Origin: Aliivibrio fischeri
GTDB taxonomy: Bacteria > Pseudomonadota > Gammaproteobacteria > Enterobacterales > Vibrionaceae
DNA: 32,000 nucleotides
Direction of reading: 5' to 3'
NCBI RefSeq assembly: GCF_009727955.1
Contig: NZ_WOBR01000003.1
Span: 86,069-118,068 of the forward strand
In this document: positions 6,213 to 28,933 of the stretch, one piece after another
Numbering within the stretch: the first letter of the stretch is position 1
How the letters are laid out: every line of letters starts with the position of its first letter
Translations under genes and position numbers: made by a program
The notes under the pieces: generated by a model
What the model was told of the DNA's origin: nothing
Databases searched by the model: none
Seen by the model: the letters and a program-made list of their open reading frames with translations, nothing else

Positions 6213-7567
6213 TACGCTGCCATATCCATTGCGTTAGGTTGCACTACTTTTTCAGCTTGTTCAGCAACTAACCCTAGCCCTTGTTTTTCAAGAATAGTAC
6301 GAATACTTTCTGCTTGTGAGCTTAAAATATTATGCGTAAGTAATAGTGGCATTGCCGCAACTAAACCTAAAACCGTAGTAACAAGTGCCATCGAAATACC
6401 CCCCGCCATCACTTTTGGATCACCATTACCAAACTGCGTAATCACTTGGAATGTTTCGATCATGCCGGTAACCGTACCTAAAAGCCCTAACATTGGAGCC
6501 AAAGCAGCTAATAGTTTAAGCATAGACAACCCTTTTTCTAGCCCTTGCTGTTCATCAACAATGGTTTCTAATAAACGCAGTTCTAATGCTTCAACTGAAC
6601 GTTGTTTTTCTGCATCGTAAACGGCAAGTACACGGCCTAGTGGGTTTTGACCAAGCTCTTGTGGTTGCTTTAATTGCTTTCTAATTTGTTGGCGAATAAC
6701 AAACAATCTCACGCCATTAAATAATGAAATAATCAATCCAATCAGTAATAAACCAATAATGATTTTACCAACCACACCACCCGCTTGAAGACGCTCTTTC
6801 ATTGTTGGCGTATTAGCTAATTGCTCTAGCATGATGCCACGTGAAGGATCACTTGCCATCATGATGACGTGTTTGTTTGACATCTCAGATAAGATAGTTG
6901 TTGTAGGAATCAGTTTTGGCTGTTGAGCATAGTAAGTCGCTACTTGCTTTTTATTGTCCCATTGCAAAAAACCATCATCACCAACCAATGCCATATTACC
7001 TAAGCGATAAGCATTGATCGATTGGCGATGACCAGAGCCATTAATCATGGTTACCGTCGTTAATTCTAATTCAGAACTTGCATTAATTTGCTGAGCCATG
7101 GTTTGCCATAACCCCGTTAATTGCGTCATAGAAGGCAAAGACTCAGCTGCAACGATATCCGAAATTAACTGACGATGTTCTACATTCGTCGCTCCTGAAA
7201 CCGAGCTTTTTAACTCCGAATCCAAATCTTTTGCTGTCTGTCTTACCACACCAAACAATTCACCTAAGCTGCCTGTTTCTAAATGCAACTGCTGCTCCAA
7301 TGTTGCTAGTGTTTTTTCATTTTTGCTGAAAGTAGCACTTAATTGATCGCTTTCTTTTTGCAGCTTTTTACGCTCTGCAATCAATGCGTTTCTTTGGGCT
7401 TTTAAGCTTTGTTCTGTTTGTTTAAAACCAGACTCTCGTTGTGCATCCTGCTGTTTTTGTACATGACTTGCTTGTTTTGTCTCTTTCAACAACTCTGTGT
7501 TTGCAGTCGCTGTATTCATCGAAAGACCAAGCAGTGAAATAGCTAAAATCAGTGGCTTAATTGTCAT
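6212..7567 (-). CDS. ttpC: TtpC-like TonB2-associated ExbB-family protein
   Basis: Large periplasmic N-terminal coiled coil plus C-terminal ExbB domain LLAALAPMLGLLGTVTGMIETFQVITQFGNGDPKVMAGGISMALVTTVLGLVAAMP. Confidence 0.85.
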   Translation of the reverse strand: MTIKPLILAISLLGLSMNTATANTELLKETKQASHVQKQQDAQRESGFKQTEQSLKAQRNALIAERKKLQKESDQLSATFSKNEKTLATLEQQLHLETGSLGELFGVVRQTAKDLDSELKSSVSGATNVEHRQLISDIVAAESLPSMTQLTGLWQTMAQQINASSELELTTVTMINGSGHRQSINAYRLGNMALVGDDGFLQWDNKKQVATYYAQQPKLIPTTTILSEMSNKHVIMMASDPSRGIMLEQLANTPTMKERLQAGGVVGKIIIGLLLIGLIISLFNGVRLFVIRQQIRKQLKQPQELGQNPLGRVLAVYDAEKQRSVEALELRLLETIVDEQQGLEKGLSMLKLLAALAPMLGLLGTVTGMIETFQVITQFGNGDPKVMAGGISMALVTTVLGLVAAMPLLLTHNILSSQAESIRTILEKQGLGLVAEQAEKVVQPNAMDMAA

Positions 7568-7568
7568 G

Positions 7569-8345
7569 TTATTTCACCTCTTTTAGTGATAAAGATACAG
7601 GTAGAGTCAATAAGCTTGGGGCAACTTGTTTATAAGCGACTGAATAGGCTTTCGCTAAATCATCATTAAACTCAGAATCCAGAGCCTCCCATTGATTGGT
7701 GTACGTATTCCAACTCCAATATTGAGAAGCATCAAGACGACGAGCGAGTAAAGATACGCGTCCTAAATGCAGCATATCTGCATCTATTTGTTCATTATTT
7801 TCAACAATGATCTGTGTTTGGTATGTACCTAGCTTTGTGCCGTAATCCATTTCGATCTGGTAGGCTTCGAGGAGTCGACGATATTTTTCAGCATCACTTA
7901 CGTCCGCTCTAGTCATCATATGTTCAAGCTTGGCAATGCGATGTAAACGCTCTTCCGTTTTAATTGGCTGATCTTGTTCAACTACTGTCGATAAACCAGA
8001 TAACATCTTATACATTAAAGGAACAACACCTTGTCTGGTCTCTTTAATGGTCTCAATTTGGTCATTTAAACTTACCATCTCTTGCTGCTGACTATTCACT
8101 AAACCTGTTAAATGATCACGATATACTGCCAAGTTTTTTACTTCTTCTTGGAGCTGCTCAATTTCGGCTTTATAAGCTAACGTCGCTTCTGCACTTTTAT
8201 CGATTTTCTTCTGACTTATCGCTGAAGAAGTATTTGATTTATTTTCAATTACTCGTGCTTGATCAAGCGCAGTTGCCTGAGCGGTTGTGATCACGGTTGC
8301 TAATGCAATACCGATACTGATTTTTAGAATATTCATATTTATCAA
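7569..8345 (-). CDS. DUF3450-like periplasmic coiled-coil protein of TonB2 cluster
   Basis: Signal peptide, coiled coil, RVSLLARRLDASQYWSWN; adjacent to ttpC as in known Vibrio clusters. Confidence 0.75.
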   Translation of the reverse strand: MINMNILKISIGIALATVITTAQATALDQARVIENKSNTSSAISQKKIDKSAEATLAYKAEIEQLQEEVKNLAVYRDHLTGLVNSQQQEMVSLNDQIETIKETRQGVVPLMYKMLSGLSTVVEQDQPIKTEERLHRIAKLEHMMTRADVSDAEKYRRLLEAYQIEMDYGTKLGTYQTQIIVENNEQIDADMLHLGRVSLLARRLDASQYWSWNTYTNQWEALDSEFNDDLAKAYSVAYKQVAPSLLTLPVSLSLKEVK

Positions 8346-8407
8346 TTTCTTAACTGTTTATTTTTAAGAACGAGCTCTTAAAAATTTGTATTCAAATAAA
8401 CGCACTA

Positions 8408-8429
8408 AAGGGAGACCGAAGCCTCCCTT
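8408..8429. terminator. weak terminator-like hairpin between receptor and DUF3450-like gene
   Basis: AAGGGAG / CTCCCTT stem, 8-nt loop; no strong U tract in the minus-strand direction. Confidence 0.4.
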
Positions 8430-8446
8430 ATTTTTATTACAATAAA

Positions 8447-10549
8447 TTAGTATTTAACTTGCAGTGTCGCCATGTAGTTTCGGCCTTCACCAATAACAAC
8501 ATTCGATGCCCCATCGGTTGCGTAACCATTCTTACCAGTTGAACCACCACCTGCTAAGTAGTCAGTATCAAACAAGTTTTCAACATTAAAACGAGCGACA
8601 AAGGTTAAATCTTGGTCATATTTGATGGTATGAGATAACCCTAAATCGAAACGTGCATAGCCATCTTTTTTAAAGGTATTCGCTGCATCACCGTAACGCT
8701 CACCAACATAAATAGCGCCTAAGTTTGCATCGGTACTATTAGTAAATGCATAGCGAGTCCATACACTTGCAGTATATTCAGGCACATCCGCAGGACGGTT
8801 ACCTTCATACTTTTCATCTTTCGCATATTCAGCATCTAGATATGTCGCTGAACCGCTCATTGATAACTGCTCAGTAATAAAGCCTTGCATCGCTAACTCG
8901 ACACCACGGTGAACACGTTCACCTGATTGTGTTTTCTCTTTCTTACCACCACCTAAATCAACATCAATCGTTGAGTTTTCTTGGGTAATATCAAATACAG
9001 CACCAGATACAAACAGCTGGTTATCCATTAATTCCCATTTAGTACCTAGCTCATACAGCTTGCCACGTAAAGGGTCCAATTTTTGACCGTCATTCACGTA
9101 TTCACTGCCTGATACTTCACCTTGCATTTCAAAGCTTTCAGAATACGTTGCATAGATAGAACCAATGTCCATCGGATGATAAATTACAGCAAACTTAGGT
9201 GATACCGCTTCTTCTGCTAAACCTTCCTCAACTTGGCGATCTAAACGAACACCAACTAATGCTTGCCATTGATCATTAAACGTAATCATATCCTGAGCAT
9301 AAAAACCCCATGTATCGTACTTAGATGTTGTATCTCTAGGGTCTTTATTTGGATTACGCTCTGGAGCGGGAGCTGGCTCGCCAACTTGGCCGACAGAACT
9401 ATTAAATGAATACTCTAAACGGTCATAACGATAACCTAACCAGTTACTACCAAATAGCATTTGATGGCTTACGCCTAACGCATCAAATTCACCGATTAAA
9501 TCAATGCTTGCTGTTTTAAATACCCAGTTATCTTTACGATCACTACCGCCTTGAACGTATTCACCCGTTGCTGGATTATAAGTTTCTTCTTTAGGGAAGC
9601 TCTCTACGTCATGACGATTAAAATCTTGATGATTAAAGCTTGCGTTAATGCGCCATACATCAGTTAAATTTGCAGTAACATCAACACCAATGTTTTCTAC
9701 ATCATTTTCGATTTTTGACCACTGAGCATCCCAAATGTATTTATCATTAACAACCGTTTTGCCATCTTTAATGTAAGCACCAGAATCCACGCTACCTTCA
9801 TCAATTGTACGGTCATAATGGAATGACACAGTGATATCATCATTGATGTCATAATCTAAGAATAAACCACCTACAAAACGCTCTGTAGAAGGCACCGTTC
9901 CATCACTGTATTGACGCCATGAGTTGTAAGTTTGCTTTGATACAATGGCACGACCACGTAATGTTTGGTCATCATTCAATGCACCACTTACATCCGCAGT
10001 TGTTCGAGAATCATTATTTGAGCCTAGATCTTGACTCACACTCACTTGAGTTTCATAGGTCGGTTTTTTAGCAACCATATTAACCAAGCCACCCGGAGCT
10101 GACTGGCCATATAACAGACCTGAAGGACCTTTTAGTATCTCAACACGCTCTAATAATTCAATTGGTTGACGATAATGAGACCAATGTTGTTTTCCATCAC
10201 GTAAGAAACCAGAGCTACTGCTTAGTGAAAAGCCGCGCAATGTAAATTGCTCACGGTTACGTGTAGTTGCACCAGCACCGATACTTGCATCATTCTTTAG
10301 AACTTCACCAAGCGTACTGGCACGTTGTTCATCAATAAGTTGCTCATCAATAACACTCACTTGTCCTGGAGTTTCTAATTGAGTTGCCTCCATTCGCATG
10401 GAGCTTGAATTTGTATCTGCCTTGTAACCATAGTCACGACCAGTAACAACCATGTGCTCATCAGTTGTTGATGCATCTGTTTCAGCGTAAGCAAAAGGCG
10501 TTGATAAAACGGCGCTAATAACAAGAGCTAACTGACTTTTAGAAAACAT
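8447..10549 (-). CDS. TonB-dependent siderophore receptor
   Basis: Signal peptide, TonB-box-like EHMVVTG, plug domain (GFLRDG..., ERVEILKGPSGLLYGQSAPGGLVNMVAKKP), barrel ending in aromatic-rich NYMATLQVKY; substrate not determinable. Confidence 0.92.
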   Translation of the reverse strand: MFSKSQLALVISAVLSTPFAYAETDASTTDEHMVVTGRDYGYKADTNSSSMRMEATQLETPGQVSVIDEQLIDEQRASTLGEVLKNDASIGAGATTRNREQFTLRGFSLSSSSGFLRDGKQHWSHYRQPIELLERVEILKGPSGLLYGQSAPGGLVNMVAKKPTYETQVSVSQDLGSNNDSRTTADVSGALNDDQTLRGRAIVSKQTYNSWRQYSDGTVPSTERFVGGLFLDYDINDDITVSFHYDRTIDEGSVDSGAYIKDGKTVVNDKYIWDAQWSKIENDVENIGVDVTANLTDVWRINASFNHQDFNRHDVESFPKEETYNPATGEYVQGGSDRKDNWVFKTASIDLIGEFDALGVSHQMLFGSNWLGYRYDRLEYSFNSSVGQVGEPAPAPERNPNKDPRDTTSKYDTWGFYAQDMITFNDQWQALVGVRLDRQVEEGLAEEAVSPKFAVIYHPMDIGSIYATYSESFEMQGEVSGSEYVNDGQKLDPLRGKLYELGTKWELMDNQLFVSGAVFDITQENSTIDVDLGGGKKEKTQSGERVHRGVELAMQGFITEQLSMSGSATYLDAEYAKDEKYEGNRPADVPEYTASVWTRYAFTNSTDANLGAIYVGERYGDAANTFKKDGYARFDLGLSHTIKYDQDLTFVARFNVENLFDTDYLAGGGSTGKNGYATDGASNVVIGEGRNYMATLQVKY

Positions 10550-14473: not shown

Positions 14474-14520
14474 TCTTATATAATTCATAGGATGTGATAA
14501 GCATTCATTTCTTATAAAAA

Positions 14521-14546
14521 AAGCGCTCTATATTTAGAGCGCTTTA
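14521..14546. terminator. rho-independent terminator between convergent torZ-like and motB-like genes
   Basis: AAAGCGCTCT-ATATTT-AGAGCGCTTT perfect 10-bp stem with flanking A and T tracts. Confidence 0.85.
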
Positions 14547-14577: not shown

Positions 14578-15219
14578 TTAATTTCTTTTAATATAAATCA
14601 CAACACGTCGATTTAATTGACGCTGTTGTTCTATCGGTAACGCTTTGTCCGCTCGAGGTTGTGCATCCGCATACGCCACCGCTCTTAATTGTGATTTATC
14701 CACATTAAATTTGATCAATTGCTTAGTCACTTCTATAGCTCTTGCTCCAGAAAGCTCCCAGTTACTATCAAACTGTTTGGTATGAATAGGTAAATCATCA
14801 CTATGCCCTTCAACGATAATAGAGCGACCGTTCAAATCTACTTCTTTCATTGCTTCTGCGAATTCGGAAATAAGAGCTTTACCTTCAGGCTTTAAAGACG
14901 CAGAGCCTGAGTCGTACAAGTTTTCACTATCAAGATCAATTCGTATACCATCGGTGACAGCAGTCACTACCACAGAATCCAAATTCTTCTGCTCCACTAT
15001 CTCCTGAATATCGGCGGTTAACTCTTGCATAGGCAGATGAGCTGCAGTATCAACCACTTTTCCCCATCCATCTTTTAGCTCTTCTAACTTGCCTTCATTC
15101 ACTTGAGAGACGGCAACAATTAGAACAAAAAAAGCCAATAATAATGTGATAGCGTCACTGTATGTCATCATCCAATCATTGTCGTCTTTCAACTCAACTT
15201 TGGGTCTTGCTCTATTCAT
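14578..15219 (-). CDS. MotB/PomB-like stator protein with OmpA peptidoglycan-binding domain
   Basis: 213 aa; single TM with conserved Asp (DWMMTYSD22AITLLLAFFVLIVAVS); OmpA-like VEGHSDDLPIH...SNWELSGARAIEVTKQL...NRRVVIYI. Confidence 0.9.
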   Translation of the reverse strand: MNRARPKVELKDDNDWMMTYSDAITLLLAFFVLIVAVSQVNEGKLEELKDGWGKVVDTAAHLPMQELTADIQEIVEQKNLDSVVVTAVTDGIRIDLDSENLYDSGSASLKPEGKALISEFAEAMKEVDLNGRSIIVEGHSDDLPIHTKQFDSNWELSGARAIEVTKQLIKFNVDKSQLRAVAYADAQPRADKALPIEQQRQLNRRVVIYIKRN

Positions 15220-16002
15220 TTAAGACGCTAACCTTTTCTTAAACGGCAAATGTACATTCATTGAATCTTGTAAGTACAAATCAGGACGTTTTTCTGTCAT
15301 TAACACAAACGCATTAATTTGCATTTCACGATTATCAAAATTGGTATTTACTCGACGACTAATACGAATCGCTGCAGGTTTGAAAAACACCTGAGCCAAT
15401 AAAATCCCATAAAGTGTCGTTAATAAAGCAACAGCTAAACCATTACCTAGAGCAGCCATATCACCATTTAAATTATCAAGCATAATGATCAAACCAATCA
15501 ATGTACCTATCATTCCAAAGCCTGGTGCATAGGTACCCATTGAGTTTAAAACCTCGGCTTGAGTCATTTCTTGTTTATATTGGCTATGATTGCTTTCATC
15601 TAATAATTTTTTAAGCTCTTCACCTTTATAACCAGTACCGATAAGTTCGACACCTAAACGGATAAATGGATCATTTTTTTCATTATCATTCAATGAATTT
15701 TCTAAACCTGACATACCACTAGATCGAAAAATCTGATTCCACTCGACCGTTCTTTTTATTGATGCATGTTTAAACTTCGTCACGTTTTTCTCATCAAGCA
15801 AGTTAACAAGTAAACCTTTAAACGAAGACAAAATAAGTGGGTATGAATAACTGATTAACGCCGCAGTTAATGTTCCACCTAGTACAATAAGAAAACTCGA
15901 TAAACTCACAAATAACATGTATTTATCGGTACTCATTGTTACGGCACCAATTAACACACCAAACGCCATCAACAAGCCGGTAATAGTACTGAATGAGATC
16001 AT
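15220..16002 (-). CDS. MotA/PomA-like stator protein
   Basis: 260 aa; ITGLLMAFGVLIGAV, FLIVLGGTLTAALISY, and TM3 Pro motif TYAP160GFGMIGTLIGLIIML...NGLAVALLTTLYGILLAQVFFKPAA. Confidence 0.9.
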   Translation of the reverse strand: MISFSTITGLLMAFGVLIGAVTMSTDKYMLFVSLSSFLIVLGGTLTAALISYSYPLILSSFKGLLVNLLDEKNVTKFKHASIKRTVEWNQIFRSSGMSGLENSLNDNEKNDPFIRLGVELIGTGYKGEELKKLLDESNHSQYKQEMTQAEVLNSMGTYAPGFGMIGTLIGLIIMLDNLNGDMAALGNGLAVALLTTLYGILLAQVFFKPAAIRISRRVNTNFDNREMQINAFVLMTEKRPDLYLQDSMNVHLPFKKRLAS

Positions 16003-17735
16003 GCTACAGACTCCAATTCATTCATTGTAAATTGTTTATTTTCAATAGCTTGACGCATTAACATCACAACTTGTTGTTTTGCCGAGTTTTGCTCATCATA
16101 TGATGCATCTTTACAACGAGTCATTTCAGCTTTGATCATTTCAATCATACGTTCAGGGAACCCTGAAAGAATGACTGCGACTTGTTCATCGTCTAAATTA
16201 GTCAACGCTAATGCTAAAATTTCAGGATTCATACTGCGTAATATATTGCTTAAAATGACCGTTGACGTTCTAAGCACGTCATCAAAAATGTAGTACACCT
16301 TACGTAGATTTAAGTACGCTTCTGGTGAAGACACTTTTAGCTGATCTAACAAATCGTTTTGCTGACGTAAATTCATTCCATCAAGTAACGACATCAACAT
16401 TTGATTACCATCGGTTCTTACAGTTTCAAAATCAGGTACCGACTGAGCTTTAGCAGCAAGTGATGAGGCAATCTCACCAAATGTCGCCATTGGCATGGAA
16501 TCAAACTGAACTATCTCTATTGCTATTAATGCTTGCTCTTCAGCCGTAAACGTTGATAAGAACTTAGCTGAGCTTTCTGATGGTAATTGGCTTAAGACTA
16601 ATGCTTTAATGCGCAATGGCTCATCATCTAATACCCAACGAATTTGATTAATACTCAACTTATCTAAAAACGAAAATGGTCGACTGCGATGTTCAAATTG
16701 CTCAGAAGAAACCGCATCAACTAATAAATAATGTAAATCCGTTAGATCTCTCACCAAGCGGTCATAATCAGCAGGGTTCGTTTCTAAATACTTCAAATAC
16801 GCTGGAATATGTTCATTTAACGCAGGAAACATTGAAGTAAATAACGAACGTCCTAGTTCCTGATAACAAGAAGCGAACATAGGGATATTTTGTTCATTCA
16901 AACTTAAACGACGAAGTACCGCATCTACTTTTTGAGGTTCACTCAAACTGTACTTAACCAATTGTTGTCGACACGCTTTCAGTTCGCCTTTTTTCGTATC
17001 TAACAATTGCTCAGGCGTTGGAGGTAATGAACTCACTTCATTAACACCCACTTCTTTTGTAGGTACTTTACGATTACGTGCAAGTAAGTAACCAATAACT
17101 AATAGTAATAATAGAACCAACACCCACCAATATTGTGCGATAAATGATCCCGTTACTTCTGATACAGGAACCATATCCATCCGAATAATCTCAAGACGAT
17201 CCCCTCTCATTGGGTTGTATTCCAACTTCTCAAGTAACAGATTTCGAATAAGCAACTCTGTATCTTTATCCACACTATTATCTAATAATAATGTAGTTGA
17301 TAAAGAACGGATCATTTTCTCCGTTTTAGGTGCTTGTTCATTACCTAACACACCTTCTTGCTGCTCTACTTCCTCACTTGGCGTCGACACTTTTGCAGCA
17401 GTATTCTGATTAAAAGCAGACATACCCGCTAAGCCAGGAAGTTCTGGAGCATCATCAATAATAGCGGTTTTTACTTCTGGTTGTTGTTTAACAACTGTCG
17501 GTTTAGATGTTAAAGCATCAACCTCCTCACGAATAAACTCAGCTTGAATAGAAAGCACATGTATATTCTTACCCGCGATTCGTTCAATGTCGCTGTTAAG
17601 TCGTTGCTCTAACTCCGCAGTAAAAGACATTTGGTCCAACTGCAACGACGTTTGTGCGAATACAATTGAGGTAATAAATAAAAAGCTAATGCATACAAAA
17701 CGAATACACGATTTCATTCTTATTTTTCCAACCAT
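15999..17735 (-). CDS. FliF(RBM3 + C-terminal TM)-FliG(middle + C-terminal) fusion-like rotor protein
   Basis: 578 aa. Signal-like N-terminus; aa 36-190 resemble the FliF RBM3 domain (ELEQRLNSDIERIAGKNIHVLSIQAEF...RSLSTTLLLD...LEYNPMRGDRLEII); TM aa 203-219; aa 355-430 resemble the FliG middle domain (WVLDDEPLRIKALVLSQL); aa 440-570 resemble FliG C-terminal (IFDDVLRTSTVILSNILRSMNPEILALALTN...PERMIEMIKAEMTR...KQQVVMLMRQAIE). ATG at 17735 or 17717. Confidence 0.8.
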   Translation of the reverse strand: MVGKIRMKSCIRFVCISFLFITSIVFAQTSLQLDQMSFTAELEQRLNSDIERIAGKNIHVLSIQAEFIREEVDALTSKPTVVKQQPEVKTAIIDDAPELPGLAGMSAFNQNTAAKVSTPSEEVEQQEGVLGNEQAPKTEKMIRSLSTTLLLDNSVDKDTELLIRNLLLEKLEYNPMRGDRLEIIRMDMVPVSEVTGSFIAQYWWVLVLLLLLVIGYLLARNRKVPTKEVGVNEVSSLPPTPEQLLDTKKGELKACRQQLVKYSLSEPQKVDAVLRRLSLNEQNIPMFASCYQELGRSLFTSMFPALNEHIPAYLKYLETNPADYDRLVRDLTDLHYLLVDAVSSEQFEHRSRPFSFLDKLSINQIRWVLDDEPLRIKALVLSQLPSESSAKFLSTFTAEEQALIAIEIVQFDSMPMATFGEIASSLAAKAQSVPDFETVRTDGNQMLMSLLDGMNLRQQNDLLDQLKVSSPEAYLNLRKVYYIFDDVLRTSTVILSNILRSMNPEILALALTNLDDEQVAVILSGFPERMIEMIKAEMTRCKDASYDEQNSAKQQVVMLMRQAIENKQFTMNELESVA

Positions 17736-18262
17736 TTAATAATGTCAGAGACTTCTGTAAGTGATGGATCAAGTTCTAATGCTTTTTTCCATGACACTAT
17801 CGCCAATTCAACTTGATTCAACTTGTAGTGAACACTGCCTTTCATTGACAGAACTTTTGCAGGGTTTTCTGTTAGCACTTCGGCTTCATTTAATAAAGCA
17901 AGGGCTCCCACAAAATCACCATTAGCCGCTTTCTCTTTTGCTTCTACACGTAAAGCTAATGATTTAGGCTCATTAAATGCCGAAACTTGAGCTTCTTCTG
18001 AATCATTTAATTCAGGTAACAAAGCATCAATGTCTTCCTCAGGAATAAGATCAGTATCAATAGTCAAAATCAAATTTGGATCAGACAAGTCAATTTGAAA
18101 CGCCGAACGATATTGCTCTCCATTCAATCGGATAGATAATTGATTCTTTTCAAAAGGAATATTCTCTACTGTTTGCTGAGATGTAATATCATTAGCCAAT
18201 GCGATTGAAGTCATCATGCATTGAGTAGTAATGGCTGAAACAAATAAGATACGCTTTTTCAT
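17720..18262 (-). CDS. periplasmic tetratricopeptide-repeat protein
   Basis: 180 aa; signal peptide MKKRILFVSAITTQCMMTSIALAND; C-terminal TPR helices (AKEKAANGDFVGALALLNEAEVL, VLSMKGSVHYKLNQVELAIVSWKKALELDPS). Confidence 0.75.
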   Translation of the reverse strand: MKKRILFVSAITTQCMMTSIALANDITSQQTVENIPFEKNQLSIRLNGEQYRSAFQIDLSDPNLILTIDTDLIPEEDIDALLPELNDSEEAQVSAFNEPKSLALRVEAKEKAANGDFVGALALLNEAEVLTENPAKVLSMKGSVHYKLNQVELAIVSWKKALELDPSLTEVSDIIKWLEK

Positions 18263-18271
18263 AACAGCCCC

Positions 18272-19324
18272 TTAGAAACGAAAACCAATAGTAAAATCAA
18301 CAGCTGCACCGCCAAACTTGCCAGTCACAACATCACCTTGGTGCTTACTCTTGTAAGAGTTCTTTTCAATATAAGCAACACCGATATCAAAAAAACCATT
18401 CTTCATATAGGCAAATTCAACACCTGAACGCATAGCGAAACTGTTCTTGCCTTCAACGAATTGAGAACCAGCACTGATATATACACTAGGAGCTGGCCAA
18501 GAAGGAGTTAAGGTGTATAAAACACGCCCTTCAATACCACCACCTTCAACATTGAATAAGTTATTTCTATCAGAATTTTGGAAGTAATTTGCAATAACAG
18601 CAAAATGCAAACGTTCACTAGGTAAATGACGAGTGTAATAACGAAGACTAAAATCAGTTACATTATTAAAAGCATCATGGCTTTCTCCATTAACTTTAGC
18701 ATCACCACTTAAGTCAATATAACTCATCGCAAATCCAAATTGATGTGGGTTTAATTCCTTCTTAATTTCTTCTTCCTTTTTAGTCATTAAATAACCATCA
18801 GCCCAAATCGTTTCGTTATTTTCGACCTGAACTAAAGAAAGGGTAATATTTTGAGAAGAATCACTTAGACCCATTCGCCACATTAAAAATGCATCAGATT
18901 GAATTTCTTTACCTAATAAACGCAACTCTTTATTACTTTCAAGTCCACGTTGATATTTAATGGATGTTTTTGTTAAATGAAGTCGAGTCTTATTACACTC
19001 AAGACAATCACGAACCAATAAACCTGATTCTTGCATCTTCGTGGTTAATAACGCATTGATATCATCAACTTGACTTTGAGTTACGTTATTATCAATCTTT
19101 CCTTGAAAGTAGATAGTTACAGAATTAATGTTTTTCTTCTCTGCAATATCTTTAATTGCAAACCAAGATTCATCACGTTCCAAAAAATCATAAATAGAAG
19201 AAGTTGATAATGAAAGTTCTGATGATGTCTTTATATTAGAAGACGCCACGGCCATATTACAAAAAATAACACCGCACAAAGTAATTAACAATTTTCTAAA
19301 CAAAATTTTACCTAAAATATACAC
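18272..19324 (-). CDS. putative outer-membrane protein with CsgG/FlgO-like N-terminal domain and C-terminal beta-barrel
   Basis: 350 aa. N-terminal half ends in LLGKEIQSDAFLMWRMGLSDSSQNITLSLVQVENNETIWADGY; C-terminal half has alternating strands and ends GKFGGAAVDFTIGFRF (terminal aromatic). The upstream end codon is GTG; a TTG at 19303 preceded by AGGTAAAAT is an alternative start. Confidence 0.6.
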   Translation of the reverse strand: MYILGKILFRKLLITLCGVIFCNMAVASSNIKTSSELSLSTSSIYDFLERDESWFAIKDIAEKKNINSVTIYFQGKIDNNVTQSQVDDINALLTTKMQESGLLVRDCLECNKTRLHLTKTSIKYQRGLESNKELRLLGKEIQSDAFLMWRMGLSDSSQNITLSLVQVENNETIWADGYLMTKKEEEIKKELNPHQFGFAMSYIDLSGDAKVNGESHDAFNNVTDFSLRYYTRHLPSERLHFAVIANYFQNSDRNNLFNVEGGGIEGRVLYTLTPSWPAPSVYISAGSQFVEGKNSFAMRSGVEFAYMKNGFFDIGVAYIEKNSYKSKHQGDVVTGKFGGAAVDFTIGFRF

Positions 19325-19343
19325 TAGCCAAATAATCCGGCGC

Positions 19344-19371
19344 AGTATACATTAAGTTTTAAATGCAACAA
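19344..19371 (-). promoter_or_regulatory. candidate sigma70-type promoter for the 14578..19324 operon
   Basis: Minus strand TTGTTG-N16-TATACT just upstream of the first gene. Confidence 0.4.
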
Positions 19372-19474
19372 CTAGCATAATCATCATGAAAACCCTCTTA
19401 CGAAAACAATAACAAAATAATATTAGATATCCGTGAAATATATTTATTTAATATATATTATTGATGGATATTAC

Positions 19475-19515
19475 AAAAAAAGGCCAATTCTGATTTTACA
19501 AAATTGACCTTTTTT
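19475..19515. terminator. terminator-like hairpin downstream of the sensor kinase gene
   Basis: AAAAAAAGGCCAATT ... AATTGACCTTTTTT, one mismatch in the GC part of the stem. Confidence 0.7.
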
Positions 19516-19538
19516 ATTAATGCTAGAGTCTGTATTTT

Positions 19539-20927
19539 TTAAACAGGAAACAACAACGATACTCTTAAACCGCCTTGTTTACGGTTTTCTGCAACAACTT
19601 GGCCTTTCATTACGGACATCGATTCTTTGACAATGGCTAAACCAAGTCCATACCCACCAGATTGCTTATCTCTGGCGGACTCTAGACGTGTGAATGGTGA
19701 GAATATATTTAAAAGCTGATCTTCTGGTATGCCCGGTCCATTATCTTCAACAATAATTGCAACGTGATTTTTCTCATTGCTCCGATATTCTGTGATAACA
19801 ACTTGAATAAGCGCATTATCGCCAGCGTACTTAATCGCATTTGTGATTAAGTTTTTAACCACTCGAGTTACTAAGCGAGGTTCAGCATGAACAACTGGAG
19901 CTTCTTTAGAGCAGATAAAATCCAAACATTGTGTCGGTCCTAAATCCATGCGGCTTTGAATCACTTGTGCGGAGATACAACTTTCAAGTAATACAAGTTC
20001 TAGCTTGGTGTTATAGCGAGAATTCTCTAATCGACTAAATTCTAAGATTTCTCCAACTAAATCATTCATCTCATTAGATTCATTTTCCAAACGGTTAACT
20101 AAGTGAATATAATCAGGATCAACCTTCTTTTTTAATAAATGAAGCGCAAGATTATGCCGAGCTAATGGGGTTCTTAACTCATGCGAAACATCACGAATAA
20201 GTCGCTGTTGCTTTTCTGCTAGCGAGTGAATTTCATGCGTCATGTTATCAAAATCATGAGCTAATTCACTGAACTCTCGAACCGAATTTCCAATTTCGTC
20301 ACTCACCTTTACGTCAAAATCACCTTGAGCAAGCTTATGACTAACCTCTCTCAACTTATCTAAAGGTCGCTGTAAATATCGTGCAATAACCCAAGAGAAT
20401 AACCCTAATATCAATACAGAAATAACTAGCTTAATAATCCCAAAATAAAGAGGAAAATTATTAGCAGGGTGATATTGATACGGCATTTGAATCACAATAG
20501 TTAATCCGTTTTCTAATGGAATACCAATAATGGGTTGATTAACTTCATTATCCAATTGCGTATTTAAAGGGCGTAAAAATTTCAGTTTAAACTCAAAATG
20601 AGGATGCATATCGCGGTGTGTAATTGGGCGGTTATTTTGGTCCAAAACAAATAAATAGTACTCTTGTGCACTCGCCCAATCCGCTAACTCATCCATATCC
20701 CCTTCTTCGATCAAGATATTTGCCTGCTCGGCCAAATCCAACATCTTAGTCTGAATAGAGCTAGGAATACGGAGCATAGATTTCATCAACGCAATTTCGG
20801 CCAAGCTCTGCAAAGAGATAATTAAAAATAAACTCACAGCAAAAGCACTAAATAGACGAAATGCTAGGCCATTTTTATATTTGCAAATAAAAGAGGGACA
20901 CGACTCAAACCATCGAAGCAACGTCAT
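19539..20927 (-). CDS. sensor histidine kinase (CpxA-like)
   Basis: Two TMs, HAMP, RDVSHELRTPLARH H-box, NLITNAIKYA N-box, DNGPGIP, GGYGLGLAIV. Confidence 0.88.
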   Translation of the reverse strand: MTLLRWFESCPSFICKYKNGLAFRLFSAFAVSLFLIISLQSLAEIALMKSMLRIPSSIQTKMLDLAEQANILIEEGDMDELADWASAQEYYLFVLDQNNRPITHRDMHPHFEFKLKFLRPLNTQLDNEVNQPIIGIPLENGLTIVIQMPYQYHPANNFPLYFGIIKLVISVLILGLFSWVIARYLQRPLDKLREVSHKLAQGDFDVKVSDEIGNSVREFSELAHDFDNMTHEIHSLAEKQQRLIRDVSHELRTPLARHNLALHLLKKKVDPDYIHLVNRLENESNEMNDLVGEILEFSRLENSRYNTKLELVLLESCISAQVIQSRMDLGPTQCLDFICSKEAPVVHAEPRLVTRVVKNLITNAIKYAGDNALIQVVITEYRSNEKNHVAIIVEDNGPGIPEDQLLNIFSPFTRLESARDKQSGGYGLGLAIVKESMSVMKGQVVAENRKQGGLRVSLLFPV

Positions 20928-20932
20928 TCCGC

Positions 20933-21598
20933 CTATCCATTAACCACTTTGATAAAGCTATAACCACGTCCGCGAACCGTTTTAATATGCTGTTTCGATA
21001 AGCCTGATTGCAATAGTTTGCGGCGAATATTGCTGATATGCATATCCAAATTACGATCAAATGGACATAACTCTTTTTTCAAAATATTGGTTTGTAAATC
21101 GGCTTTAGATACGACAACGTCCGTATTTTTAATTAAATATTGCAGTAACTCTGATTCCGTTTCAGTTAAAGGTAAACGTAAGAATTGTTCCGCTAAATCT
21201 TCTGTTGCACCTACATAGCTTTGACGCTGACGTTCAAGTCCTACACGACGTAAAATCGCAGTGATCCTTGCAAGCAACTCTGGCACATTAAAAGGTTTTG
21301 CAATGAAATGATCTGCACCCGCTTGTAATCCATCAAGCATAGACGCTTCATCGCCTAAAGCCGTAAGCATAAGGATAGGGGTAGCAAAACGCTGACATAT
21401 ACGGCGAGCCACTTGGTAACCATCTAGCTTTGGTAACATTACATCAAGCAAAACGAGATCTATGGAGTGCGTTTGAATAAATTCCAGAGCACTTTCGCCA
21501 CAATGTACGCAATCGACATCATAGCCTTCATCTTGTAATACTTCTTGCAACAAATTGCATAACTCAATGTCGTCATCAACAACTAAAATACGGGACAC
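20933..21598 (-). CDS. OmpR/PhoB-family response regulator (CpxR-like)
   Basis: Receiver (ILVVDDDIELC, DLVLLDVMLPKLDG) and winged-helix (VSKADLQTNILKK...RNIRRKL-type HISNIRRKLLQ...TVRGRGYSF); paired with kinase. Confidence 0.9.
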   Translation of the reverse strand: MSRILVVDDDIELCNLLQEVLQDEGYDVDCVHCGESALEFIQTHSIDLVLLDVMLPKLDGYQVARRICQRFATPILMLTALGDEASMLDGLQAGADHFIAKPFNVPELLARITAILRRVGLERQRQSYVGATEDLAEQFLRLPLTETESELLQYLIKNTDVVVSKADLQTNILKKELCPFDRNLDMHISNIRRKLLQSGLSKQHIKTVRGRGYSFIKVVNG

Positions 21599-21697
21599 GT
21601 TTATTTACCATTTAAATGAAAATCGTTCGCATTCTAGTCGTCAGCAATTAAGAGTGCAATAGCGAATTGAATTAAGCGACGGAACACAAAAATAAAG

Positions 21698-21713
21698 ATG
21701 ACAAAAATGTCAT
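21698..21713. promoter_or_regulatory. candidate operator in divergent intergenic region
   Basis: Inverted repeat ATGAC-N6-GTCAT between the cpxR-like gene and the divergent small secreted protein gene. Confidence 0.3.
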
Positions 21714-21792
21714 TCAATAGACCCTTTGTTGTCACCATCACTCGATTATGATGAACCTACTTAAACAAGAAAAGCTCATTAAGGAGTCTATT

Positions 21793-22173
21793 ATGAAATC
21801 ATTCAAATCACTTGCTTTAACTACTCTAATTATTGTTGCAAGCTCAAGCGCAATGGCAAATCCAGTAATCACAAGCGGTAATTACATTAGCAAAAGTAAC
21901 AGTACTGTAATTCATACTGATAACCTATCAACAAAACAAGCGGCTTATAATCAAGCATTAACAAAATTGAATCAATTAGATAAAAGTACGCCAAAAGAAC
22001 TGAAAAAAGCCCTAAAAGTCGCATCATTTGAATCAACAACAACGCAAAGCATTAGCTTAGATGATAATAGCTATATTACCGTTCAAGAAACAATGAACAT
22101 GCAAGGGCAAATACAATACACGGGATTAATTCATGCGAGTTATCATTATTTAGAACGTAACTCAAATGACTAA
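21793..22173 (+). CDS. small secreted protein, possibly DUF3316 family
   Basis: SD AAGGAG upstream of ATG 21793; signal peptide MKSFKSLALTTLIIVASSSAMANP. Family name is from memory. Confidence 0.65.
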   Translation: MKSFKSLALTTLIIVASSSAMANPVITSGNYISKSNSTVIHTDNLSTKQAAYNQALTKLNQLDKSTPKELKKALKVASFESTTTQSISLDDNSYITVQETMNMQGQIQYTGLIHASYHYLERNSND

Positions 22174-22277
22174 TTTTTTATGTTATTTTATTTAAATCAA
22201 CGTGTCATCTAAGAACGATACGTCTATATTGTATTGATAACCATTGATTATTCTCCACGCATTAAAGAAGTAAGAAT

Positions 22278-22961
22278 ATGAAACTACTTATTATTGAAGA
22301 TGAAACTAAAACAGGAGAATACCTAAAAAAGGGGTTAACAGAATCAGGCTATACTGTTGACCTATCACAAGATGGTGCTGACGGTCTATATAATGCGACC
22401 ACCAATCAATACGACTTAATCATCTTAGATGTCATGTTACCTAAGCTAAATGGTTGGCAAATTCTACAAACACTACGAAATTGTGAAAATAATACGCCAA
22501 TCATTATGCTAACTGCCAAAGATCAAATTGACGATAGAGTAAAAGGGTTTGAGTTAGGAGCAAATGATTACCTTATTAAACCCTTTGCTTTTGCTGAACT
22601 AAAAGCCCGCATTGAAAATGCCCTTCGCGCAAAATCCGTAACATCACAAGCTTCATTATCAAATCAATTGGTCTTACTTGATTTACAACTGGATCTATTA
22701 AAACGAACCGCAACAAGAAACCAAGACAACATTACCCTTACAGCGAAAGAGTTTTCATTACTCGAACTGTTTATGCGTAAACAAGGGGAAGTATTATCAA
22801 GAACAACAATCGCTTCCCTGATTTGGGACATGAATTTTGATAGTGATACCAATGTCATTGATGTCGCGGTGAAACGACTTAGAGCTAAAATAGATAAGCC
22901 CTACGACACGCCACTAATTCATACTGTTCGCGGTATGGGCTATAAAATGGATGAATGCTAA
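22278..22961 (+). CDS. OmpR-family response regulator, CusR/CopR-like
   Basis: MKLLIIEDETKTGEYLKKGLTESGYTVDLSQDGADGLYNATTNQYDLIILDVMLPKLNGW; C-terminal wHTH ending VRGMGYKMD. Confidence 0.9.
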   Translation: MKLLIIEDETKTGEYLKKGLTESGYTVDLSQDGADGLYNATTNQYDLIILDVMLPKLNGWQILQTLRNCENNTPIIMLTAKDQIDDRVKGFELGANDYLIKPFAFAELKARIENALRAKSVTSQASLSNQLVLLDLQLDLLKRTATRNQDNITLTAKEFSLLELFMRKQGEVLSRTTIASLIWDMNFDSDTNVIDVAVKRLRAKIDKPYDTPLIHTVRGMGYKMDEC

Positions 22962-24306
22962 TTATATGAAAAAACATTACTTATCAATGAAACTAAAACT
23001 GACATTAATGTTTTTCTCTACCTCGGTATTTGTCTTTATTGGCTTAGGTTTCGCCATTCAATATCTCGTCCAATCTCATTTTTATGAAGAAGATCTTCGC
23101 TTAATTAACGCCAACCGTACTTCCATTTTTGTTTTATTAGAAAACGAAGGAATCACCAGCAGCGAAATTTTTGCTTCATTAAAAAGTCGTGGCATTAATA
23201 TTTGGATTGCCAATGATAATGGCACATTGACACAAAATACCAATGTGATCCCCAATGACAGTGCGTTTAAACAATCAAAGAAAATCAACGAATGGACTTA
23301 TGCAGGAAGTACATTTAGAACACTCTACTACCCACTAGAAAATGAGAATAATTATACTGGGCTGCTTATTGGAATTAATATTGATCACCACATTGAGTTC
23401 AATAAAAGACTAAAAGGCATTTTAATATGGTCCATTAGTATCGCGAGTCTCCTCTCTTTCATTTACAGCTTTATCATCGTAAATATGGGCTTTAAACCTC
23501 TGCAATATTTACAAGATCGCATCAAGCAAGTGCAACCAAATAAGTTAAGCATTCGGTTATCCGATGAACACTTACCTAATGAGTTAATTGAACTTGCTAA
23601 AATACAAAACCAAATGCTGGACAGGTTAGAGCTTGGATTTGAACGTCTCAGCGATTTTTCATCCGATATTGCTCATGAGTTAAAAACGCCGCTCTCAAAT
23701 ATGATGACTCAAACCCATGTCACCTTATCGCAACCAAGAACACCTTATGAATATCAAGAGATCTTATCTTCAAACTTAGAAGAATTAGAACGCATTAATA
23801 AAACCATTAACGATACCTTGTATCTTGCTAAATCTGAAAATGATTTATTATTAAAAGACAATATGCAATTAGATCTGAAACAGCTCTTCTCCCCTATTAT
23901 CGAGTATTACAGCATTGTCTCTGAAGAGACAGGAGTAACGATTCATCTATCGGGAAATGGCTCTCTTTGGGGCGATAAATCCATGATTCAACGCGTAGCA
24001 AATAACCTACTCTCTAACGCTATACGTCACTCTGCGCCCGATAGCGATATTCAAATTAAGATTGAAGAAAACCAAAATAACATCGTGCTATCTATCTCGA
24101 ATATGGGTGATGAAATTCCTGATAAAGATTTACCTTTTATTTTTGAACGCTTTTATCGAGCAGATAAATCCAGACAACATTCAAGTAGCACTGGAGCTGG
24201 CTTAGGACTAACCATTGTACGCTCAATTGTGAACCTACATAACGGTGATATTTCCGTTCAATCGGAAGGAAAGAAAACCACCTTTTTGCTTACCTTTCCT
24301 TTATAG
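22951..24306 (+). CDS. sensor histidine kinase, CusS-like
   Basis: Two TMs, SDIAHELKTPLSNMMTQ, NNLLSNAIRHS, GAGLGLTIVRSIV; overlaps the regulator gene. Start may be ATG 22966. Confidence 0.9.
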   Translation: MNANYMKKHYLSMKLKLTLMFFSTSVFVFIGLGFAIQYLVQSHFYEEDLRLINANRTSIFVLLENEGITSSEIFASLKSRGINIWIANDNGTLTQNTNVIPNDSAFKQSKKINEWTYAGSTFRTLYYPLENENNYTGLLIGINIDHHIEFNKRLKGILIWSISIASLLSFIYSFIIVNMGFKPLQYLQDRIKQVQPNKLSIRLSDEHLPNELIELAKIQNQMLDRLELGFERLSDFSSDIAHELKTPLSNMMTQTHVTLSQPRTPYEYQEILSSNLEELERINKTINDTLYLAKSENDLLLKDNMQLDLKQLFSPIIEYYSIVSEETGVTIHLSGNGSLWGDKSMIQRVANNLLSNAIRHSAPDSDIQIKIEENQNNIVLSISNMGDEIPDKDLPFIFERFYRADKSRQHSSSTGAGLGLTIVRSIVNLHNGDISVQSEGKKTTFLLTFPL

Positions 24307-27307: not shown

Positions 27308-28933
27308 TTACACTTTAAAGCGTGATAGAGACTGCTGAAGAGTTGAAGCTAATTGCGCTAACTCAACACTTGATTGAGCCGTTTGCTCTGCACCTAGTGC
27401 AACTTCGCTTGCAGATAGGCTCATGCTTTGAATGTTGCGACCAAGTTCTTCTGTTACTGAATCTTGTTGGCTACATGCACTTGCAATTTGAATACTCGTA
27501 TCCGTTACTTTCATCATGGTTTCTTCAATCATTTGAATTGAGTTACCCGTTTGAACGCTTTGCTCTACACAAACACGGATCTTAGAACAACTTTGATCCG
27601 TTGCATTCTTGGCATGTGCAGCACTTGCTTGTAACTTTTCAATAATTTCAACGATTTCACTTGTTGATGATTGAGTACGACCTGCAAGAGAACGAACTTC
27701 ATCGGCAACAACCGCAAAACCACGACCTTGCTCACCAGCACGTGCCGCTTCAATCGCTGCGTTCAATGCTAATAAGTTAGTTTGGTCAGCAATTCCACGG
27801 ATAACTTCAACAACTACGCTGATGTTATTTGATTCACGTTCTAACTCTTCAACCAACTCACCTGCTTGCTCGATATCACGAGAAACAATCTGAATTTGCT
27901 CAATGTTAGATTGAACGTCTTGGTTACCTTGCTTCGCTTCTTCTGACGCTTCTAGAGCAGACGTTGATGCTGTTTCAGTGTTGTTTGCCACTTCTGCAAC
28001 CGTTGCCTTCATCTCTTCCATTGCAGCGGCAACCATTGTGATGTCTGATTGTTGCTGCTGCATACCACGTGAAGATTGCTCAGAGATCGCGCTCATCTCT
28101 TCAACCGCAGCTGAAAGTTGAGTAACAGCAGAAATCGTATCTTCAATCAAAATACGTAACTGGTGTTGCATTTCAATGTTAGTATCCGCTAGCGCGCCTA
28201 GTTCATCATTACCAATTTCACTACGACGGAGTTCAAACGTTAAATCACCCGCTGCAATCGCTTTAGACTGTTCAACCACCAAGTTTAATGGACGACAAAT
28301 TTGACGAGCTAAGAAGAAAGTAATGAAGATCATAAATGCAATTAATGCACTGAACGATACTTTTGTTGCCAACGTTACGTTATTAACACTGCTCATGATT
28401 GATTGGCGATTATTCGTAACAAAACCAAGGTTTGTTTGAACTAATCCATCCATTGCCGCGCCAACTTCCTCAAATTGAGAGAATGAATCCAACAATTCCT
28501 GTTGGGCTAACTTAAGATCTTTATTCGCAACTAAGCCGTTAAATTCTTTTAATTCAGTTAAATACTTATTCCAACCATTTGCAACGCGGTCAAAAACACG
28601 GCGTTCATCAGCACTTGCTACCGTTGCTTCATATGCATCAAGATCAGATTTAATTTGAGCTTCTTGTTTAGACAACGTTGATAATAAGGTTGGTAAATCT
28701 TTTTCTTGATAAGTTAATGCAGCGTATTGGTTACGACGATACGCATTCATTTCATAATATATGTCTTCAACTGACAACACACTTGGAACCGTAGAATCTG
28801 TAAAGTTAATTACTTCTGACTCTACTTTGTTTAATTCTTGTAATAGGAAAAAAGCAAACGCAATCATCACCAAACCAATGGCCGAAAAAACAACTGCAAT
28901 TTTCTTTTGCACTGCTAAATTTTTGTAACTCAT
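27308..28933 (-). CDS. methyl-accepting chemotaxis protein
   Basis: TM + 4HB-like sensor + HAMP + signalling hairpin tip [40 protein letters not shown]. Confidence 0.95.

Follow-up and report, generated by a model that had tools for sequence, protein, structure and literature searches.

The Aliivibrio fischeri genome encodes, in five tightly packed genes, what is probably (at a rough probability of 0.6) a self-contained, non-flagellar rotor–stator machine derived from the flagellar motor and coupled to the outer membrane. The cassette occupies positions 14578-19324, on the minus strand and between two intrinsic terminators, of a stretch of 32,000 nucleotides of contig NZ_WOBR01000003.1 (positions 86,069 to 118,068; assembly GCF_009727955.1), termed the window in the following. 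Flagellar torque arises between the stator MotAB (or PomAB) and the C-terminal domain of FliG, which is mounted on FliF. To our knowledge, all known torque generation between FliG and MotA takes place inside flagella, and Tol, Ton, Gld, Agl and Zor, the remaining 5:2 motors, work through different transducers. The cassette combines a FliF–FliG-like fusion protein with its own MotA- and MotB-type stator, a periplasmic tetratricopeptide repeat (TPR) protein and a predicted outer membrane barrel protein. The homology of each of these parts, the conservation of key residues and the co-occurrence of the five genes in other bacteria carry the proposal. The initial annotation of this DNA had pointed out that FliM, FliN, rod, hook, filament and export genes are missing from the window, which holds upon checking of all open reading frames (ORFs) of at least 120 amino acids (aa), none of which is a flagellar structural, switch or export gene.

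A fusion of FliF and FliG elements

Judged by profile comparison and structural modelling, the 578-aa product of the third gene is a real chimera of FliF and FliG (Table 1). Its FliG middle and C-terminal domains exceed the Pfam cut-offs (25 bits for FliG_M and 23.3 bits for FliG_C), a profile built from 13 family sequences retrieves FliG 3hjl from the PDB sequences at 8.6e-30, and hhalign aligns residues 102-323 of canonical FliG with residues 349-570 of the fusion at a probability of 99.4. The AlphaFold2 (AF2) model of the protein, derived from a 65-sequence alignment, has a mean predicted local distance difference test score (pLDDT) of 84.6 and an all-helical cytoplasmic part, and its top match upon Foldseek comparison is full-length FliG (8umx_B, 7.9e-9), with the isolated FliG_C and FliG_M domains matched at a root mean square deviation of 1.3-1.6 Å. 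The NCBIfam FliG equivalog TIGR00207 is not reached (58.6 bits versus a cut-off of 226.7). Residues 241-350 form a confidently modelled helical domain and the Foldseek alignment to full-length FliG extends over about 330 columns; structure alone thus suggests that residues 241-348 may be equivalent to the FliG N-domain.

Two charged residues of the torque interface have counterparts in the fusion, R529 being equivalent to R281 and E537 to D289 of Escherichia coli FliG. Position 529 is Arg or Lys in 58 of the 65 family members and position 537 is Glu or Asp in 34, while the equivalents of K264, D288 and R297 are not retained (T512, A536 and S). In alignments to FliG of T. maritima and A. aeolicus and to canonical FliG, the FliM-binding motif EHPQ(R) is replaced by DEPL, with retention of the Glu only (E372), which is conserved in the family; FliM or FliN genes are found neither in the window nor in any related locus examined.

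The FliF-like part is invisible to Pfam, as neither YscJ_FliF nor YscJ_FliF_C gives a match in the fusion at E <= 0.1, and became apparent because a family profile and structure comparison were used. Against the PDB sequences, the family profile finds Salmonella FliF (6scn_A, 7e-8, FliF residues 233-552); a profile of the N-terminal half alone still does so (E = 6.3e-8), aligned to residues 233-503, and Vibrio FliF matches the family profile at 0.0022-0.0027. With the fusion model as query, the FliF S-ring/RBM3 chains 8z5v_A, 8z4d_1 and 6scn rank after FliG, with E-values of 2.5e-3 to 2.5e-2 and a TM-score of up to 0.59 on the target. The similarity to FliG is thus supported by Pfam, the family profile and Foldseek and that to FliF by the latter two, and on both the first interpretation of the locus had depended.

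In the model, the RBM3-like domain has the topology alpha-beta-[disordered insert aa 79-132]-beta-alpha-beta. An RGD motif (aa 177-179) lies directly before the membrane helix, and the family consensus RGDxLxIVRTxF aligns onto FliF RGDTLNVVNSPF, immediately before the second transmembrane helix (TM2). The periplasmic part comprises about 170 aa, with the disordered 55-aa insert located where the beta-collar of FliF would sit, and an N-terminus resembling a cleavable signal peptide replaces TM1 of FliF. This disordered loop, although variable elsewhere, contains a nearly invariant LPGL(P/S) peptide where FliF has its beta-collar; the peptide is a candidate ligand of the TPR protein.

A flagellar-type stator dispensable for swimming

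MotA2, the product of the fourth gene (Pfam MotA_ExbB, 82.6 bits), has four transmembrane helices, a cytoplasmic loop with an Arg/Glu pair and two prolines, whereby R93, E101, P160 and P209 match R88, E96, P151 and P199 of PomA. All 13 cassette MotA homologues in the alignment have the pair of Arg and Glu or Asp. An apparent charge covariation, loss of the MotA Arg along with the FliG-like Glu in the distant loci L013-L015, was dismissed, as a better alignment shows these MotA proteins to retain the Arg and an acidic residue. PDB matches of MotA2 are Clostridium sporogenes MotA, Bacillus subtilis MotA and Vibrio PomA. Flagellar stator models are also the best NCBIfam matches, although below the equivalog cut-offs (PRK09109, 143.9 versus 237; PomA, 126.2 versus 341), and MotA2 is far from the Tol/Exb proteins (tolQ 17.2 bits and exbB 13-17 bits, with cut-offs above 135). 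MotB2 possesses a MotB_plug (51.2 bits) and an OmpA-type peptidoglycan-binding domain (65.3 bits) according to Pfam; Asp22, located in the transmembrane helix, occurs in each of the 10 cassette homologues compared, and the best NCBIfam match, MotD, stays below its equivalog cut-off (156.4 versus 283).

The three threonines that form the Na+ site of PomA are retained in MotA2 (T167/T158, T195/T185 and T196/T186), which makes Na+ the probable coupling ion of MotA2B2. In the alignment, Ala occupies two of these three positions in B. subtilis MotA, the H+-driven stator. With respect to the rotor interface, stator and rotor of E. coli contact each other through R90-D288/D289 and E98-R281 (PMC12505986), and both partners of each pair are present in the operon, as R93-E537 and E101-R529.

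The stator genes, spanning 14578-16002, are the very same motA2 and motB2 that were investigated by Brennan et al. (2013; PMC3948606), whose motA2 primers match positions 15956-15979 (1 mismatch) and 15777-15800 (2 mismatches). According to the passages of that work concerned with these genes, insertion mutants of motA2 or motB2 show wild-type motility in soft agar, motA1 and motB1 mutants are entirely defective in motility, and motA2/motB2 are not activated by FlrA. The cassette is dispensable for swimming. Those same passages leave out the three upstream genes, the FliF–FliG nature of VF_A0185 and the distribution of the cassette. The operon does not belong to a lateral flagellar cluster, a caveat of the initial annotation: the window is without any other flagellar gene, and its stator genes lack FlrA activation according to those passages.

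The envelope proteins

The first gene encodes a secreted protein with an N-terminal alpha/beta domain and a C-terminal small beta-barrel ending in GFRF, for which no Pfam or NCBIfam family, CsgG included, gives a match. Its AF2 model, calculated from a shallow alignment, has a mean pLDDT of 65.4; the N-domain (about residues 41-180) is modelled better, most of its 10-residue blocks reaching 74-91. Foldseek compares the barrel with the 8-stranded NspA (2.3e-5), OmpW, OmpA and OmpX, and the N-domain with TolB-N (TolB, 4e-5), LpoB and GNA1162, so that the model combines a small barrel resembling OmpA/OmpW with a domain resembling TolB-N/LpoB. A CsgG channel, that is, a lipoprotein forming a nonamer with a 36-stranded barrel, was rejected as identity, because the modelled barrel is small and monomeric and the N-domain shares the broad fold only. 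Accordingly, among the product names initially assigned, the TPR protein, the FliF–FliG fusion and the MotA- and MotB-like proteins are retained, whereas 'CsgG-like' for gene 1 was only loosely right with respect to the fold of the N-domain. A C-x-E-C motif in the periplasmic domain is kept even in the most distant homologues; a disulfide, metal binding or a redox function could account for it. Homologues of gene 1 occupy the same position in other cassettes.

The second gene product is a secreted protein of 180 aa, in which an acidic linker lies between a small conserved region at the N-terminus and TPRs at the C-terminus; TPR_11, TPR_1 and TPR_2 score above the Pfam gathering thresholds. With a hidden Markov model (HMM) of the family, a TPR protein is found beside the fusion in nearly all loci. 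In several distant cassettes the homologues are lipoproteins, with signal ends resembling a Cys lipobox in L008-L010.

Distribution of the cassette

The fusion family is large, as 190 clusters at 50% identity match the profile at E <= 1e-30, mostly with lengths of 550-730 aa. Among 141 long representatives, the RGD motif is followed by a hydrophobic helix within 110 residues in 113, and the LP[GAS]L motif is present in 92; the architecture of the fusion is therefore common to at least 113 clusters. Detection required an exhaustive profile search: word-indexed searches with the fusion alone and with the 65-sequence alignment returned the same 21 close matches, and scanning of genome contigs with the fusion protein alone yielded three Aliivibrio loci.

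Upon searching for co-occurrence with the window proteins and subsequently with family HMMs, the complete set of five genes was found in 11 loci outside A. fischeri, with identities of the fusion down to about 25-30%. These are, besides A. fischeri ES114 itself, A. logei, A. finisterrensis, Vibrio agarivorans (L006), Vibrio sp. SCSIO 43136, three metagenome contigs (L008-L010), metagenome-assembled genomes (MAGs) of a gammaproteobacterium (L018) and of a member of the Saccharospirillaceae (L019), and the contigs L020 and L021. The genes are arranged in three orders, with OMP standing for the outer membrane protein: OMP-TPR-fusion-MotA-MotB, MotA-MotB-OMP-TPR-fusion and fusion-OMP-TPR-MotA-MotB. 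The flanking genes differ and are unrelated between loci, and co-occurrence in other genomes, initially proposed as a check of the operon, is observed across different gene orders and contexts. A copy of the cassette on a plasmid was looked for and not found. A full-text literature search, which did not cover most papers in subscription journals, likewise recovered no description of this synteny, that is, of the five-gene cassette, or of a non-flagellar FliF–FliG protein.

A distant variant, represented by L013-L015, encodes MotA and MotB, an OMP-like protein, a TPR lipoprotein, a 450-aa paralogue that corresponds to the N-terminal half of the fusion, a second TPR protein and the fusion. Such second matches to the fusion HMM, also present in L011 (Table 1), look like an additional FliF-like subunit without the FliG domains; the protein of L014 has a weak YscJ_FliF_C match.

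Several loci have neighbours of note. The V. agarivorans cassette (L006 1-13127) stands directly beside flgT, flgOP, flgMN, flgA, cheVR and flgBCDE and is the only one in a flagellar neighbourhood. In L018 (5191-19415), a Sel1/SPOR protein precedes the cassette, and a BBP2 barrel and Wza-, Wzc- and Wzy-like polysaccharide export genes follow it directly; L011 likewise has a Sel1-repeat protein after the fusion. Upstream of the cassettes of L008 (1086-1418), L009 (4703-5053) and L010 (472-864), in each case on the minus strand, a divergently transcribed gene encodes a conserved secreted protein of 110-130 aa with conserved cysteines, which is absent from the Vibrionaceae cassettes. A stand-alone PilZ-domain gene (L016 8456-8797, minus strand) adjoins the TPR-fusion pair of a Deltaproteobacteria MAG without adjacent MotAB.

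Operon organization and transcription signals

The initial description of five minus-strand ORFs packed almost without gaps and bounded by a terminator at each end is confirmed by the coordinates, the gene junctions and the two hairpins (Table 1). The stop codon TAA of gene 1 is followed by 9 nt including GGGG and the ATG of the TPR gene, the TAA of which is separated by 2 nt from the ATG of gene 3 at 17717. The fusion and motA2 are joined by an ATGA overlap, GCATGATC, and motA2 and motB2 abut in TAAATG. The five genes are translationally coupled. The longer ORF of gene 3, starting at 17735, overlaps the TPR gene by 16 nt, and homologues begin at its Met7, so that the ATG at 17717 is most likely the start. 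Because homologues have a length of 343 aa, translation of gene 1 likely starts at TTG 19303, which gives 343 aa, rather than at GTG 19324, which gives 350 aa.

The terminator of the upstream histidine kinase gene (-21.3 kcal/mol, z = -5.4 against shuffles), which the terminator scan had missed, identifies the cassette as a transcription unit of its own. The conserved block CTTAATGTATACTGCGCCGGATTATTTGG is kept in four Aliivibrio sequences while the surrounding intergenic DNA diverges, and is a candidate promoter or operator. Within it, GCCG(A/G)ATT resembles the -10 element of a sigma-28 promoter, with no conserved -35 element; a sigma-28 promoter for the cassette is plausible on this pattern, against which stand the lack of -35 conservation and the independence of the genes from FlrA. 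The base composition of the region is unremarkable.

The 578-aa fusion is 100% identical to a protein of A. fischeri. The region is 95% identical at the protein level to positions 198812-216548 of chromosome II of strain ES114, and by position the five genes are VF_A0183 to VF_A0187. A later study assigns the locus tags VF_A0186 to motA2 and VF_A0187 to motB2 (bioRxiv 10.1101/2023.08.07.552283).

Table 1. Coordinates of the cassette, its domains and signals, and of further features of the window; rows with a locus handle refer to that locus.
Feature	Position	Strand	Basis or remark
Gene 1, outer membrane barrel protein	18272..19324	-	ORF list; VF_A0183 position
Gene 2, TPR protein	17720..18262	-	ORF list
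Gene 3, FliF–FliG fusion, 578 aa	15999..17735	-	ORF list; likely start ATG 17717
Gene 4, motA2 (VF_A0186), 260 aa	15220..16002	-	ORF list
Gene 5, motB2 (VF_A0187), 213 aa	14578..15219	-	ORF list
Fusion: signal peptide-like N-terminus, RBM3-like periplasmic domain, one TM helix, FliG middle and C-terminal domains	15999..17735	-	fusion architecture
Fusion: predicted periplasmic FliF RBM3-like domain, aa 28-186	17178..17654	-	AF2 model, profile alignment, Foldseek
Fusion: LPGL motif, residues 99-102, in disordered insert	17430..17441	-	motif conservation
Fusion: predicted TM helix, aa 195-222, FliF TM2 equivalent	17070..17153	-	AF2 helix, FliF alignment, matching hydrophobic segment of homologues
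Fusion: FliG middle domain, aa 364-434	16434..16646	-	Pfam PF14841, 66.9 bits
Fusion: FliG C-terminal (torque) domain, aa 465-569	16029..16343	-	Pfam PF01706, 63.6 bits
Gene 1: C-x-E-C motif, C107 and C110, periplasmic domain	18995..19006	-	invariant in 11/11 homologues
Conserved intergenic block upstream of gene 1	19328..19356	-	alignment of four Aliivibrio sequences
Bidirectional intrinsic terminator, 11-bp hairpin with T-runs	14520..14545	both	common to convergent torA-like gene
Terminator of upstream histidine kinase gene, 17-bp hairpin then U7	about 19470..19521	-	folding
Second fusion-HMM match, 430-453 aa, L013	3804-5165		E 1e-27 to 1e-35 (all four loci)
Second fusion-HMM match, L014	4617-5969		
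Second fusion-HMM match, L015	4679-6025		
Second fusion-HMM match, L011	2660-3952		
TonB2-type cluster	3504-10549	-	4 kb from cassette
Two OmpR-type two-component systems facing each other	19539-24306		DUF3316 gene 21748-22173 between
Tandem 541-aa MCP paralogues	27308-28933, 29396-31021	-	identical layout (4HB_MCP, HAMP, MCPsignal)
Third MCP ORF	31342-31992	-	probably cut by window end

Genomic neighbourhood

Near the cassette lies a second 5:2-motor system that also comes with a TPR partner, the TonB2-type cluster. It consists of a TonB-dependent receptor, a DUF3450 protein, a 451-aa MotA_ExbB protein (TtpC-like), ExbB, ExbD, TonB and a TPR protein, with the ExbB/ExbD/TonB set proper at 4682-7567. 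Further neighbours in the window are a TorCA-like pair, the two OmpR-type two-component systems and the three genes for methyl-accepting chemotaxis proteins (MCPs). As a two-component system also lies near the cassette of L019, the upstream system (19539-21598) was considered as a part of the cassette; this was rejected, since a strong terminator intervenes. Likewise, the proteins of the upstream system and those of L019 are 26-31% identical with sensor domains that cannot be aligned, which is a relationship at the level of paralogues only.

Discussion

In the proposed mechanism, MotA2 and MotB2 would form a flagellar-type 5:2 stator unit, anchored to the peptidoglycan through the OmpA domain of MotB2 and powered by the flow of ions, probably Na+, via Asp22. 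With its cytoplasmic loop (R93, E101), MotA2 would push against the torque helix, bearing E537 and R529, in the FliG-like C-terminal domain of the fusion. Several copies of the fusion may build a membrane ring, held together by the ring-building RBM3-like domain and the FliG armadillo domains. Such a ring would turn in one direction, with no input from FliM, FliN or CheY; the MS-ring of FliF itself has about 34 subunits. The flexible loop bearing LPGL would replace the FliF beta-collar, which surrounds the rod, and may be held by the periplasmic TPR protein, which in turn may contact the TolB-N/LpoB-like domain of the outer membrane barrel. In this way, ion-motive force would reach the outer membrane or the periplasm. 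The work done by the machine is not swimming; as the gene set is recurrent and swimming is unaffected, the cassette probably powers another job in the cell envelope. A dedicated rotor with a use other than turning a flagellar filament, as suggested at the outset from the sequence, is supported by the cassette's own FliG-like partner, the conserved gene set and the motility-neutral mutants in the consulted passages of PMC3948606.

Comparison with the core of the flagellar motor shows what has been kept and what has been given up. With FliF the cassette shares the RBM3 fold, TM2 and the RGD-x8-F motif, and with FliG the middle and C-terminal domains, including counterparts of R281 and D289. Its stator belongs to the PomA/MotC type, MotA2 carrying the R/E loop and the two prolines, and MotB2 the Asp, the plug and the OmpA domain. 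Also FliF and FliG in one chain have a counterpart in engineered FliF–FliG fusions, which are reported to form rings (PMC10941966, PMC6079021). Different from the flagellar core, the cassette is without FliM, FliN, export gate, rod, hook and filament genes, has lost EHPQR, has no FliG_N at the sequence level, lacks RBM1, RBM2 and the beta-collar, and has a signal peptide-like N-terminus in place of TM1, while its two dedicated partners, the TPR protein and the outer membrane barrel, are absent from flagella and swimming does not require it.

Tol-Pal (TolQRA, TolB, Pal and CpoB) likewise combines an ion-driven 5:2 motor in the inner membrane with a partner in the outer membrane. It also comprises a TolB-N-like domain, a TPR protein of the periplasm and a peptidoglycan-binding domain of the OmpA type, and uses ion-motive force for work at the outer membrane. 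In contrast to Tol-Pal, the motor of the cassette is flagellar-type and not TolQR, the transducer is a FliF/FliG chimera and not TolA, the peptidoglycan-binding domain resides on MotB2 and not on an outer membrane lipoprotein, and there is no beta-propeller. The motor GldLM of type IX secretion and gliding, with GldKN and SprA, is similar in concept only, in that a 5:2 motor drives an assembly which spans the periplasm and is linked to the outer membrane; the transducers are not homologous, GldM being a long periplasmic dimer, whereas in the cassette torque would be taken up on the cytoplasmic face by the FliG domain. Zorya (ZorAB) also employs proteins of the MotAB family outside motility, and MotB2 matches the ZorB models via general MotB homology, but MotA2 is without the long ZorA tail and matches ZorA at E 0.0016-0.01 over 60 residues only. 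An assignment to Zorya or another defence system was rejected, as ZorC, ZorD and ZorE are absent and the other three proteins are without a PADLOC match.

Several observations weigh against a rotary machine as outlined. The FliF part of the fusion consists of RBM3 and the second transmembrane helix only, without RBM1, RBM2 and beta-collar. The FliG N-domain goes undetected by sequence, as hhalign aligns nothing before residue 349, and the acidic D289 equivalent, retained in barely more than half of the family, is absent from the cassettes L013-L015 and L018. The outer membrane model of gene 1 is only moderately confident. In four loci (L004/5, L011, L016 and L017) the fusion has no adjacent MotAB, with the TPR protein beside it in three of them and the fusion alone in the remaining one. 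The three residues that suggest Na+ are found in C. sporogenes MotA as well. Lastly, a large complex is difficult to rotate through the peptidoglycan while being tethered to an outer membrane barrel.

This last difficulty also speaks for the main rival explanation, a transducer in the style of Tol-Pal or TonB in which the fusion forms no closed ring and single copies or small oligomers are pushed by a spinning MotA2 pentamer, the movement then travelling through the periplasmic domain on to TPR protein and barrel, where it could serve, for instance, to maintain the envelope or to drive uptake or export. The parallel to Tol-Pal extends over the 5:2 motor, the TolB-N-like domain, the CpoB-like TPR protein and the OmpA-type anchor, the absence of RBM1, RBM2 and beta-collar fits a fusion that builds no ring, and the location of the L018 cassette directly upstream of a Wza/Wzc/Wzy polysaccharide export cluster would agree with a role in export. 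Still, this polysaccharide neighbourhood is restricted to a single locus, the RBM3 fold along with FliG M/C are ring-forming elements of the flagellar rotor that are modelled with high confidence, and the stator is of the flagellar and not of the Tol/Exb type (tolQ and exbB models at 13-17 bits), so that transmission without rotation is considered unlikely.

Less likely again is an accessory of the polar flagellum, with MotA2B2 as alternative stators under other conditions than those studied and the fusion, the TPR protein and the barrel as an additional ring, a stator depot or a brake at the flagellar pole. MotA2 does retain the residues that contact canonical FliG, the V. agarivorans cassette adjoins flagellar genes (flgT, flgOP, flgMN and flgA), the conserved upstream block holds the sigma-28-like GCCGAATT, and motA2 and motB2 decrease, as do fliA and cheV2, in a biofilm model with RscS overexpression (bioRxiv 10.1101/2023.08.07.552283). 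On the other hand, the cassette supplies its own FliG-like partner, its neighbours are non-flagellar in all other loci, and the -35 element that would complete the sigma-28-like sequence is not conserved. A decaying remnant of a second flagellar system without present function would go along with a FliF reduced to a fragment and with no phenotype being known; as all five ORFs are intact and show translational coupling, both catalytic and interface residues remain conserved, and the reduced architecture recurs in over 100 clusters at 50% identity, the gene set outlasting rearrangements of its order, such a dead relic is very unlikely. The preferred reading thus remains a rotor–stator machine of flagellar descent that works on the cell envelope.

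Beyond A. fischeri, it can tentatively be suggested, at somewhat less than an even chance, that the cassettes represent a widespread and hitherto unrecognised class of rotary machine, in which a free-standing FliF/FliG ring, driven by flagellar-type (probably Na+) stators and without secretion apparatus or axial structure, is coupled through TPR protein and barrel to work in the envelope that has nothing to do with motility. Its members would be either stripped-down descendants of the flagellar motor or surviving relatives of the rotor–stator pair from before the union with the type III export apparatus.

If the rotary reading is true, the torque interface of the flagellum has been reused for another cellular task, and the cassette would provide a minimal natural rotor–stator system of five proteins for structural and single-molecule torque studies. 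It would also bear on how the rotor–stator pair and the type III export core were joined, and hence on the origin of flagellar rotation. For the genetically tractable squid symbiont V. fischeri, it would explain the 'silent' motA2B2 paralogues, and the cassette would separate flagellar torque generation from the flagellum in an organism amenable to experiment.

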